From: Octopus vulgaris
Lineage: Eukaryota
Direction of reading: 5' to 3'
Assembly (NCBI GenBank): GCA_951406725.2
Contig: OX597828.1
Span: forward strand, 70,928,001 to 70,992,000
DNA length: 64,000 nucleotides
This document shows positions 11,318 through 62,848 of this stretch, one piece after another. The notes under the pieces are model-generated. The model was not told where the DNA came from, made no database searches, and worked only from the letters and a program-made list of their open reading frames with translations. The position numbers and the translations under genes were made by a program. Position 1 is the stretch's first letter. Every line of letters starts with the position of its first letter.

Positions 11318-11743
11318 CAGTTGATTGTATGTTGTCAACTTAATGTGACAGTCCCATGAAAGGGAAGAATGCTACTGTCATTTAGCCCTAGGAAACAGTT
11401 TCCTGTTGGACTTGACATATTTCCTGTGTCCTCATGTTTTCGAAGTGGAGACATGCACTTCTACCCAGCAAAGCCAGCATCCAGAGACTAGTTTCAGAGT
11501 CATTGCTCATCATCAGTCTGGAGTAGCATGGCTTTGCTGGGTGGAGGTGCTTGTCTCCACTTTGAAAACACGAGGACACAGGAAATGTGTCAAGTCCAAC
11601 ATGAAACGATGTTTCCTAAGACTAAATAACAGTAGCATTCTTCCCTTTCCTGGGACTGCCACATTAAGTTGGCAACATAACATCCCCTTATCGTGCTGCT
11701 ACTGCATAAATCTCTCTGAGAGATTTAGAAATGTAATATTTCT
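11318..11743 (-). mobile_element. Foldback non-coding element with central hammerhead motif, inserted into a SINE
   Basis: About 150-bp inverted arms spanning 11328-11679. 11-bp direct repeat AAGTATCTTCT at 11307-11317 and 11744-11754 (TSD). The interrupted SINE resumes after 11755. Confidence 0.85.
11480..11522 (-). ncRNA. Minimal type-I hammerhead ribozyme motif
   Basis: Minus strand UCCAGA-CUGAUGA-U-GAG(CAAUGA)CUC-U-GAAA-CUAGUC-UCUGGA: 6-bp stem I, intact CUGAUGA/GAAA core, palindromic stem III ACUAGU, GUC triplet. U-U mismatch at the base of stem II. Confidence 0.8.
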
Positions 11744-12259
11744 AAGTATCTTCTATCATAGCCTTGGACCAGCCAGTTCCTTGTTAGTGGATTTGGTTCA
11801 CAGAAACAGAAAAACCCTATTGTAAATGTGTGAGTGTGTGTGTGCATGCTCATGCGTGTGTGTTTGTGTGTGTGTGTGTGTATGTGTGTGTGTTTGTGAG
11901 TGTTTATCTTGACATCAAATGGTAGTCGTATATGAACTTCACCTTCGTACAAGTGGTATTTTTTTCCCCATATTCCATAAAAAACATGTCTGGCCATGGG
12001 GAAATATTATCTTGTTTGGAAATAGGTGAGGATTGGTGACAGGAAGGGCACCCAGCTGTAGAAAATCTACCTCAACAAACTGTGTCTAACCCATGCAAGC
12101 ATGGAGAGGAAGGGGCAAGATTAGGTCCCAAGATGCTGGGCTTCCCAGATAAAATGACAAAAGATAGAAGGTAAGGAAAATAGAAAGAAATGAGGATGCA
12201 TTATGGATTGAAGAAATGTGTAAAGCACGGATGAAAGGAGGGTAGAGTAATTATCTGAG

Positions 12260-12650
12260 ATAAACTAGTGATGAATTGTGGGTAAGGGAACGAGGTAAAG
12301 TTTGTGAATTGTGGATAGAGAAATTAGGTATGCAAAGATGGATTGTAGGAAGAGAAATAAAAAAAATTGCAATGAATTATGGGTAGACAAAGTAAAATGT
12401 AAGTGAATTGTGGGTAAAGAAACAAGGTCAAACAATAGTAGATTGTGGAAGGAGGAATGAGGTGAAATAATAGAGAATTATGTGTAGGGAAATGAGATAA
12501 AAGGAGATGAATTGTGGGAAGAGAAACAAGGTAGAATAACAATGAATTGTGGGTAGAGAGATATGGTAGAACAGCAGTGGATTGTGGGTAGACAAGACAC
12601 CAGTTAAGATTATGTATTGAACTGAGAGAAATGTGGTGCATTGTGAGTAG
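12260..12650 (+). repeat. Degenerate tandem repeat (~34-bp unit with GAATTGTGGG core)
   Basis: Recurrent (T)GAATTGTGGGTA(G/A) motifs at regular spacing. Confidence 0.55.
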
Positions 12651-12938
12651 GGGTTTATGTAAAGGGTTGTTGATAATGTGACAGTGATAGAAGTGAATGT
12701 GTTGGACATTATTCTAAAAGTGAATTTGGACATTGTTTTTGTAAAATTGCATGTTTGCATAGAAGTAGATTTTGTGTCTGTATAAACATACATAAATATA
12801 TATGTGTGTATGTATGTGTTTATATAAACACACACACACACACACACACACACACACACACACAAATATGCGTTCATGTATTAACTATGTGTGCGGGAGC
12901 AAGCTGTTTTTCTCACCTGATTTCTGTTCTGTTGGTAG

Positions 12939-13045
12939 GTGTGAGCTCATTAAACCTCTGTCAGAAGAACTGCACCTGGGCTGATAACTTGGAAGTAAAT
13001 CTATATCCTTGGGATGCTGGAACAGATGATGGTCCCAGCTATATG
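12939..13045 (+). CDS. SPON1: Spondin-1 exon (Spondin_N domain)
   Basis: tag acceptor (12936-12938), gtaag donor at 13046. Encodes (G)VSSLNLCQKNCTWADNLEVNLYPWDAGTDDGPSYM, with the hallmark LYPWDAGTD. Phase 1 to 0. Confidence 0.95.
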
Positions 13046-60150: not shown

Positions 60151-61045
60151 TGTATGTGTGTACTTATGTGAATGTATACGTGTATCTATAAGTTCAGTGT
60201 AGTGGTGGTGGTGGTGGGGGGGGGGTAAACATAGATTTTCAGACTGCAGATGTTAAAATTATTATTAGTTTCATTGAAATAAATATCTTTCAATCAATTT
60301 TACATCACGAGATTATTTTTTAATTATCAATTTTAATGAAAATTTGTTAATTGCTTGTTATTGAGTTAAACAAATACGCCATTTTGTTCCGTATATATAT
60401 ATATATATATATATATATATATATATATATATATAGTATTTGATTGAACACCCGCATCCATTTCCAAGTAAGTTTTATCTTAATATATTTGATGCGACTC
60501 ACTCACTCCTTCCACTGTTTTCTCTCTCTCTTCATTTCGTTTTCTCTGTCATCCTTTCTCTAATTCTTTTTACTTCCCTTCACCGTTTTCTCTCTCTCTC
60601 TCTTCCTCTTTTATTCTCTCTCGTTTATCACACGTGACCATCGTCCATCTTTCTTCTCCTCACGTGATCATTATTCTTTTCCGTCAGACTGTAGTGCAGT
60701 CCAGACGCATTCCTATCTGTCTCCTCTCCTACCTTTTCTCTTATCAAAGAATCTCCTTCAAGCATTCGCCACTTTACCTCGTCTGAGCCTAACAACCCTC
60801 CCTGTTTGTTTTCGTTTCATTTTGTTTGTTGTATGTCCTGTTTTTGTTCCCAACTTTGGCCCTCCTCAAATCCCAAATTTTATTTCGGTTCGCGGGAGCA
60901 ACTGCTTTCAAAGTTTTATCTTGACGTTCAATGTTCGAAATAAGGAGTAGAAGGACAGCCGACAACTGATGAAGGGTCGCTTTTTTCTTGTTACTTGTCT
61001 TCTTTTCCTTTTCTTTCTCTCGTTCTTTGCGTACCAAGCGTTATT

Positions 61046-61286
61046 TCCGTATTTCATGTTGTTTACGTTTTGTGACGTCCTATACCCATATATGCATACC
61101 TATATATATATACATATGTATATATGTACATGTGTGTATGTATATGCATATATATATATATATATATATATATATATATATATATATATATATATATGCA
61201 TATACATACACACATGTACATAATGTATATAGGTATGCATATATAGGTATAGGACGTCACAAAACGTAAACAACATGAAATACGGA
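61046..61286. repeat. ~60-bp inverted repeat flanking a (TA)n spacer
   Basis: TCCGTATTTCATGTTGTTTACGTTTTGTGACGTCCTATACC (from 61046) is mirrored at 61246-61286. Confidence 0.88.
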
Positions 61287-62659
61287 TATATTTATCATCT
61301 ATCTATCTATCTGTCCATCTTCCTGCCTGTTGGTCAGTTAGTCTTTCTGCTTGCCTGCCTGCCTCTCTCTTTCTCTCTGTCTGTCTGTCTTACTCTCTCT
61401 CTCTCTCTCTCTCTCTCTCTCTCTCTCTCTCTCTCTCTCTCTCTCTCTGATTTTTCCCTCATAAATATTTCCAATCTGTCCTGTCATGTTTGTTGACGAC
61501 AGGATACACAACATTCTACTTTCACATGGCTGTACAATTAACACATCTACTTGGCAACTTAGTGGTTTGGGGTTCAAGCTCATTGCATAGCACCTTCAGT
61601 AGATGTTTTGTTCGTTTTTTGTTGGGTTTTTTTTTGCCTTACACCTCAGATCAATGAAAGACTTAAAGACTTATGAGAGAAATTTGAAAGACTCAAACAG
61701 ATTTAGACTTATTGACTTAATCATTCCCTTACCCCATCCACTTTAACACCACCACCTGGTCCTTGAGTACCTCTACAGTTAGACTTAATCTATCAACACA
61801 TGGCACACCTGGACATACCTCTATAGATAGACACATTACACACCTGTGCATATTGCACATTTCCACACATTACATGCCTCACCACATTGCACACAATCTA
61901 ACCTATATAATCTCCCATTTATGAGATTAAATTTAATCTTTGTAAACTTCACATTTCATGCAAGATAGCTTAGCCATAACTAGCAAGCAACTAGAAATGG
62001 GACCATAGAGTTTCCATAGTCATGTTATGTTTCATAGTGTTTCCATAGAATGCTCTGTATTATGAAGACCATAGTGTGTTCCGCACTCATAGAGGCCATA
62101 GTTTGTATTATGACACCATTGTGTTTCCATATTATGTTCTGTATTATGGAATTTGCAGTATTCCATATTATGACACTATAGAGTTCTCATAATATTTCCA
62201 TACTATGGAGACCCATAGAATAAAGGATAAAGTTTATCTACCCTGTAATAAATTGTAAGTAGGGACCAGTGTAAGAAGTTTATTTACCAACCATATGGTT
62301 CCAGGTCCAGTCCCAATGCAAGTAGATTTGATAGGTGGAAACTGTAAGAAACCTGTTGCATATATATATATATATTTAAATACTGTTAAATACTGTTGGA
62401 TTTTTCTCATAAGGTATTGGAATCTTACATATATACCATTCTGCCTAAAAAATGGATCTACAAATTCAATGTGTGTGTGTGTGTATGTGTTTGTCCCCCC
62501 AACCATCGGCAAAAGAGACAGATAGAATAAGTTCTAGATTTTCAAAGAATAAGTCCTGGGATCGATGTGTTCAACTAAAGGCAGTGCTTCAGCATGGCCA
62601 CAGTCAAATGACTGAAACAAATAAAAGAATAAAAGAATATATATACACATATACTCACC

Positions 62660-62848
62660 ATGTTGGACCACTGAACTCAATATGTTTTTTCCATTCTCTC
62701 TCTATTTATTTCCTCGTGTTCCTTTCTGTCGAAGAGCGTAGGCTCGAAACATAAAAGACTTTCTCACTTTCCCGAGCATCAAACTAATACACACCTGCTT
62801 GTCGTTCATACACCTGTCTTAATCTTTGTTTTTCTATAAATCTGAACT
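62660..62848 (+). mobile_element. Short non-coding element with hammerhead-like motif (62722-62757)
   Basis: CUUU-CUGUCGA-A-GAGC(GUAG)GCUC-GAAA-CAUA-AAAG (A6>U, G16.2>A). Ends CTGAACT before (TA)n. 3' part resembles 37180-37240(-). Confidence 0.62.

Follow-up and report, generated by a model that had tools for sequence, protein, structure and literature searches.

Thousands of minimal hammerhead ribozymes per genome have been described as the remains of truncated Penelope-like elements (PLEs; Cervera and de la Pena 2014, PMC4209133; this and the other papers cited here are drawn on for the portions covered). In metazoan PLEs, these ribozymes have a short stem I, an extra base after position 9 and a palindromic stem III, and they occur in many consensus families per genome, mostly as single motifs, with opposite-strand pairs lying 100-700 bp apart. 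Here, we describe five families of this kind (A to E), each represented in a window of 64,000 nucleotides of the Octopus vulgaris genome (contig OX597828.1, positions 70,928,001-70,992,000; 37% GC, many microsatellites), which comprises 2.8 Gb in 227 contigs. The palindromic stem III and the extra base after position 9 are found in the majority columns of all five families, and scattered PLE hammerheads, as reported in a first-pass annotation of the window, are already known in kind and ordinary. However, family B carries a tRNA-like, putative promoter segment, which is not described for the pseudo-long terminal repeats (pLTRs) in the covered portions of PMC4209133, and the same applies to the fixed core changes U4C (family D) and A6U (family E) and to the extra U before GAAA in families A and C. 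The tRNA-like segment in the ribozyme-bearing end of family B, hereafter called the head, is the new part; the remainder consists mostly of ordinary PLE ends.

Several other systems share parts of this arrangement. The Poseidon PLE of Anolis (Frangieh et al. 2024, PMC11167929) encodes a reverse transcriptase (RT) with a C-terminal GIY-YIG endonuclease, targets AT-rich DNA, uses uncleaved RNA as template and starts reverse transcription in vitro at two internal sites, which produces a tail of 30-40 bases. Family B resembles it in its protein domains and its AT-rich targets and probably also in its two RT start sites and its uncleaved template; however, the Anolis ribozyme overlaps the start of the open reading frame (ORF) and no RNA polymerase III (Pol III) head is reported in the portions covered, whereas the ribozyme of B lies in the 3' untranslated region (UTR) behind the tRNA-like segment. 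The SINE-like Schistosoma repeats Sm-alpha and Sj-alpha (PMC6765202, PMC6155905) are likewise short and non-coding, with a Pol III promoter ahead of a type I hammerhead, but their ribozymes are canonical and fast, they are arranged in tandem, and no coding parent is named in the parts covered, whereas the ribozyme of B is minimal, its insertions are inverted in the manner of PLEs and its coding parent can be seen. In the TRIMp3 elements Cassandra, Helenus and Ajax (Kojima 2024, PMC10886601), a small-RNA-derived Pol III promoter lies within the terminal repeat and has been proposed to derive from the insertion of a short interspersed element (SINE); these are non-autonomous long terminal repeat (LTR) elements, whereas the segment of B lies within a protein-coding PLE. 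Animal non-LTR retrozymes (PMC7229834; 10.64898/2026.07.22.740005), for which an origin from PLEs has been proposed (bioRxiv 10.64898/2026.07.22.740005), are similar to family A, whose 346-base non-coding unit contains a type I hammerhead and is read through at its junction in some loci; unlike retrozymes, the insertions of A are fold-back pairs. A literature search conducted mostly at listing level turned up no PLE whose ribozyme end contains a promoter-like segment derived from a tRNA, and the word "hammerhead" is absent from the octopus repeat annotation PMC13282606 and from PMC8967140 in the portions covered; Repbase, Dfam, the repeat library of PMC13282606, preprint supplements or older work on octopus SINEs could already contain these families.

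Families A to E are dispersed repeats, one for each element type of the window, whose relatives were found by sequence alone. A first look gave 2643 (A), 3849 (B), 1303 (C), 1408 (D) and 3988 (E) candidates genome-wide; for each family, 40 candidates were scored and 30 loci were taken. An unbiased sample of 100 evenly spaced 10-kb stretches (1 Mb) contained 2, 38, 10, 16 and 13 BLAST pieces of A to E, respectively. Positions in family B are counted from the stop codon (0), which places tRNA position 1 at +32 and the predicted cleavage site at +222. The window copy of B consists of the following parts:

30494-30502, plus strand: left copy of the 9-base target duplication of family B (right copy at 31010-31018)
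30504-30700, minus strand: inverted arm of family B, from the B box to a short 3' end, with a decayed hammerhead at 30560-30605
30735-31007, plus strand: forward arm of family B, with the tRNA-like head, (AAT)n, a decayed hammerhead at 30881-30926 and a long 3' end with tail
30740-30812, plus strand: tRNA-Arg-like head with an exact A box (30747-30757) and a B box (30791-30801) that is decayed in this copy

The head at 30740-30812 had escaped the first-pass annotation. Across the family, the stop codon is followed by the head, (AAT)n, the hammerhead and two 3' ends. Directly upstream of this end, the ORF encodes an RT (Pfam RVT_1, E 2.4e-10) and then a GIY-YIG look-alike (0.97); Pfam alone did not detect GIY-YIG on the fragments. 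When an ORF-bearing copy served as query, the head was found between stop codon and ribozyme in all 30 ORF-bearing copies (30/30), partly deleted in some of them. The longest copy (L349/L401), which extends over about 2 kb, is broken and truncated at its 5' end; by its motifs, this PLE is putatively Poseidon-like. The A box of the head lies at +39, the B box at +83 and the modal 5' end of the copies at +25. Compared with the SINE promoter consensus given in the covered part of PMC8969392, the A box is exact and the B box has one mismatch, with a spacer of 33 bases. When the head was compared with 20 of the 34 listed tRNA genes of the genome, two tRNA-Arg genes gave the best alignments (z 8.4 and 7.5). 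Judging from its sequence, the segment is tRNA-derived and not itself a tRNA.

The 5' ends of B copies cluster at this head. In 30 loci chosen solely on the last 86 bases of the element (3'-selected set), the furthest 5' end falls at +24 to +48 in 24 loci, further downstream in five and upstream in one; in the unbiased sample, nine of 21 insertions end at +24 to +48, nine downstream and three upstream. Stops occur at the head at 70 times (3'-selected set) and 18 times (unbiased sample) the rate seen downstream. These tallies were made by hand, with five alignments that pass through a palindrome assigned to +30, and three rows of the 1-Mb sample (the head of another repeat and two short B-box/AAT matches) were removed. 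The cliff coincides with the 5' boundary of the head, whereas structure would be expected to stall RT at the 3' boundary. All 21 two-armed insertions of the 3'-selected set combine a long and a short 3' end, the query having required one long end, and 13 of these 21 are flanked by target duplications of 9-14 bases (control maximum 7). A single-armed copy in the flank of L133 starts at the head and lies within a 15-base duplication. RNA contigs from four runs span the whole B stretch and are uninformative on start, strand and level. B agrees with a tRNA-derived SINE in its A and B boxes, their spacing (30-35 bases), their distance from the 5' end (10-15 bases) and its target site duplications; it is not a lineage separate from its helper with a tail derived from a long interspersed element (LINE), as the head belongs to the coding PLE.

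The remaining families and a further PLE remnant are represented in the window as follows:

11322-11744, minus strand: family A insertion, with a forward arm carrying the hammerhead (short 3' end at 11322) and an inverted arm with tail (to 11744)
11480-11522, minus strand: family A hammerhead, minimal type I, with full core, stem III palindrome and GUC site
37026-37340, minus strand: family C copy, with the 5' part and hammerhead at 37242-37340 (motif 37267-37313) and the tail at 37026-37079
50761-50969, minus strand: family D copy between microsatellites, with a hammerhead (50861-50895) that has the family's U4C core
59318-59415, plus strand: 3' fragment of family D, which starts 1 base past the predicted cleavage site
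59698-59743: partial inverted copy of D within a larger inverted duplication
62658-62848, plus strand: family E copy, with a hammerhead (62722-62757) that has the A6U core; the copy represents the 3' terminus of an element that codes for GIY-YIG
57420-57863, plus strand: old GIY-YIG PLE remnant, with no link to A to E as far as tested

All five families bear a Penelope-type insertion pattern, which is supported by inverted arms, a one-sided tail and target duplications or (TA)n targets. The first-pass annotation had seen five ORF-less elements of otherwise different sequence and proposed several non-autonomous families mobilised by Penelope elements. The type of mobilisation holds for all five; however, only A and C look purely non-coding and non-autonomous, whereas B and E, to which RT/GIY-YIG remnants are linked, are 3' ends of coding PLEs, and D is probably also the end of one. 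D is furthermore related to E (local score 101 versus a maximum of 57 in 300 shuffles). No linked RT or GIY-YIG coding sequence was found for A, C and D. The AACT terminus noted there is the family end of B, D and E, whereas it is specific to the window copy in A and C ends differently.

The A insertion of the window, whose fold-back structure had escaped the first-pass annotation, folds as one long hairpin (z -26.8; 0/100 shuffles); it folds back within the extended stem I of its ribozyme and thereby forms a 370-base hairpin with the ribozyme at the tip. One long and one short 3' end are combined in 22 of 24 two-armed A loci, the family A query having favoured fold-back copies. The hairpin appears to be intronic, on the opposite strand, within a spondin-like gene. 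Family C is a young element of about 250 bases found in (TA)n; 17 of its 23 distinct insertions are head-to-head pairs, and each of these 17 has a tail on one arm only. In the window copy of C, the middle is replaced by an E-like 3' end (37190-37245) and another repeat. An E-type end also lies in a B copy (L345). Such placement of E-type 3' ends within or at the margin of copies from other Penelope-type families suggests nested targeting. Of the 60 loci of D and E, nine were selected because the DNA upstream of them was not microsatellite, and this DNA was inspected: three E loci continue via a CA-rich UTR into endonuclease remnants, with a GIY-YIG look-alike (0.95). One D copy reaches more than 1 kb into CA-rich DNA, and no ORF was found within 8 kb upstream of the longest D copy. 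By its motifs, the PLE of family E is presumably Neptune-like. The microsatellite targets noted in PMC8557442 (portion covered) are consistent with this label. In the window, at 59058-60005, about 300 bases of flank and the D fragment are duplicated in inverted orientation around another repeat (approximately 59473-59697).

Among the parsed best copies, the ribozyme core is intact in 22/23 (A), 15/18 (B), 19/20 (C), 2/27 (D) and 0/24 (E), with 7, 12, 2, 3 and 6 copies unparsed, respectively. The family state of D is U4C (24 of 27 parsed copies) and that of E is U at position 6 in the majority of copies; both families have retained their stems and the stem III palindrome. A G10.1-C11.1 pair stands beside GAAA in B, D and E, A and C have the extra U there, and stem II of C opens with U-A. 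According to the covered portion of Perreault 2011 (PMC3088659), U4C considerably reduces in vitro activity yet permits viroid infectivity, and changes at position A6 lead to low activity; no hammerhead paper with A6U was found in the literature search. Because the best copies share these core changes, ribozyme activity of D and E is, by sequence, doubtful. Both families are abundant, with altered cores and intact stems, and could serve as a natural experiment on why PLEs retain the hammerhead, be it to cut or to offer a fold that binds protein.

With regard to family B, we consider it slightly more probable than not that it spreads SINE-like copies, with Pol III transcribing the 3' end of the element itself and the PLE protein inserting the transcripts. 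Pol III would start about 7 bases before tRNA position 1 of the head and would make an RNA of roughly 290 bases from B's own 3' end; the PLE protein would nick AT-rich DNA and insert this RNA, with reverse transcription beginning at either of two internal sites and giving the long and the short 3' end. The complementary DNA would then reach the 5' end of the RNA and often fold back at a short palindrome or microhomology, which would produce the second arm, and the template would mostly be uncleaved RNA. By analogy with Anolis Poseidon, two start sites, a tail, AT-rich targets and an uncleaved template fit A, B and C. Family A, with its unit of 346 bases, and family C, with about 250 bases, may be non-coding passengers of this machinery, and D and E truncated ends of related microsatellite-targeting PLEs with drifted ribozyme cores. 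The wider proposal that an autonomous PLE captured a tRNA-derived Pol III promoter within its ribozyme-bearing terminal repeat, thereby making its own SINE in tens of thousands of copies, is put forward tentatively, at a little under even chance. If true, B would show a PLE-driven SINE at the moment of its origin, still joined to its parent, and would point to a way in which Sm-alpha-like repeats could arise. In the literature, SINEs travel with LINEs, and passengers of PLEs (retrozymes) have so far only been proposed; in B, the parent and the short form occur within one sequence whose ends are defined, which makes trans-mobilisation by a PLE protein and the use of Pol III testable in the in vitro PLE system already available.

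Alternatively, the short B copies could have arisen from the full PLE RNA by ordinary 5' truncation, which is a real possibility, though well short of even. A 6-base-pair palindrome at +25 to +36 is used by many junctions, and fold-back is also seen at palindromes elsewhere, namely at the 5' end of C, within the stem I extension of A and, in L233 and L282, at +223 to +230 of B. In a tree of B, short and ORF-bearing copies are intermixed (15 label changes; rough bootstrap); a separate SINE lineage within B is unsupported, and the single strong diagnostic column follows the choice of query. Similar tRNA-like heads are moreover found on other abundant repeats of the genome (window 3609-3667, L228). 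Truncation alone, however, does not readily account for about eight arms that start at +25 to +28 and whose junction does not involve the palindromic partner, for a comparable palindrome at +156 to +167 that is no hot spot of 5' ends, or for the scarcity of ends just upstream, as only one of 87 listed arms starts at +1 to +14 and the seven at +15/+18 are alignments through the palindrome. Pol III-driven spread of B, for its part, has further points against it: ARAGORN at default settings reported no tRNA in 41 loci and at lowered thresholds in only 2/31 (-ps90) and 8/31 loci (-ps80), Rfam scans of the head gave no tRNA match, and no full-length B element with a 5' pLTR was seen among the copies examined. 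A T4-free sense strand was rejected as evidence for Pol III, since the end of the ORF is likewise without T4.

It is improbable that all five families are independent non-autonomous retrozymes spreading via ribozyme-cleaved circular RNAs. Read-through of the unit junction in 7/30 A loci, one head-to-tail C locus (L089) and the intact majority cores of A, B and C would agree with this; for B and E, however, the reading is contradicted because both continue into PLE coding sequence, and the cores of D and E are mostly altered. Two whole same-strand units were found in none of 30 A loci, a number against which the bias of the fold-back query towards non-arrayed copies has to be set. Copies beginning at the cleavage site were rejected as the main route: such a start was seen in 1/30 D loci and, among 30 further rows, only in the window fragment (59318-59415), and the cases in B, where 2 of 21 sample insertions fold 2 bases beyond the cleavage site, are explained by a palindrome. 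Insertions seem to be made mostly from uncleaved RNA. That the motifs are chance matches within AT-rich repeat DNA is hardly credible. The full core is missing in four of the six window motifs and monomer folds are weak (three of six no better than shuffles, one more only marginally), but monomer folding is uninformative on dimer-type ribozymes. A descriptor for type I hammerheads with at most one core mismatch and an obligatory palindromic stem III had no match in any of 25 local dinucleotide shuffles of the window and found 36 matches in the 1-Mb sample, 15 of them with full core, whereas five shuffles gave 0, 2, 1, 0 and 2; the excess over shuffled sequence, together with cores and stems common to dispersed copies found by sequence alone, refutes the chance reading.

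All six hammerheads of the first-pass annotation are present at the positions and on the strands that it gave. Its CUGANGA/GAAA-like cores are complete in two of them (11480-11522, 37267-37313), whereas GAAA is replaced by AAAA at 30560-30605 and by CAAA at 30881-30926, the core reads CCGACGA at 50861-50895, and it reads CUGUCGA at 62722-62757, where the stem III palindrome is also broken. The two motifs of B in the window reflect simple decay of individual copies. In the window, the descriptor recovers four of the six motifs and one unrelated match at 42819. The proposed density was about one motif per 10 kb; with the descriptor, the sample has about one per 28 kb, the window being somewhat richer than average; extrapolated from the 1-Mb sample, this corresponds to roughly 100,000 descriptor motifs genome-wide. 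An Rfam scan of the window showed simple-repeat matches and no hammerhead among the best 150 of 406 matches listed, and the Rfam scans overall gave simple-repeat and hairpin matches, with no hammerhead or tRNA among the matches listed. At least six additional hammerhead families occur in the 1-Mb sample (L218, L232, L234, L242, L261, L293, L296, L312). Several of them carry a CCGANGA core, and L261 has two identical same-strand motifs spaced 545 bases apart.

The Penelope remnant at 57.5 kb, noted earlier as GIY-YIG-coding, is GIY-YIG-like through its relatives and single-copy as DNA. It is unlike the endonuclease of family B, and as a candidate helper of A to E it was dismissed, no link having been found. 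Just behind it, a possible decayed hammerhead (57910-57956, plus strand) matches only a loose pattern, and its stem I pairs poorly. A further PLE family related to the remnant (L155, L167, L170, L176, L179, L180) has its own intact-looking hammerhead, which lies 300-370 bases behind the endonuclease in 5/30 loci and inverted upstream in 2/30. Two open frames (236-592 and 937-1290, plus strand) resemble pieces of a Tc1/mariner transposase. The window also contains the following features:

about 6200-26400, plus strand: exons of the spondin-like gene (TSP1, Kunitz), e.g. 16836-17426 and 19178-19522
25846-26068, 27824-28067, 45084-45297, 52355-52565, 59519-59694 and others: repeats of SINE-like type in very high abundance, some with tRNA-like heads resembling that of B
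26501-26736: tandem array of a 21-base unit in 11 copies

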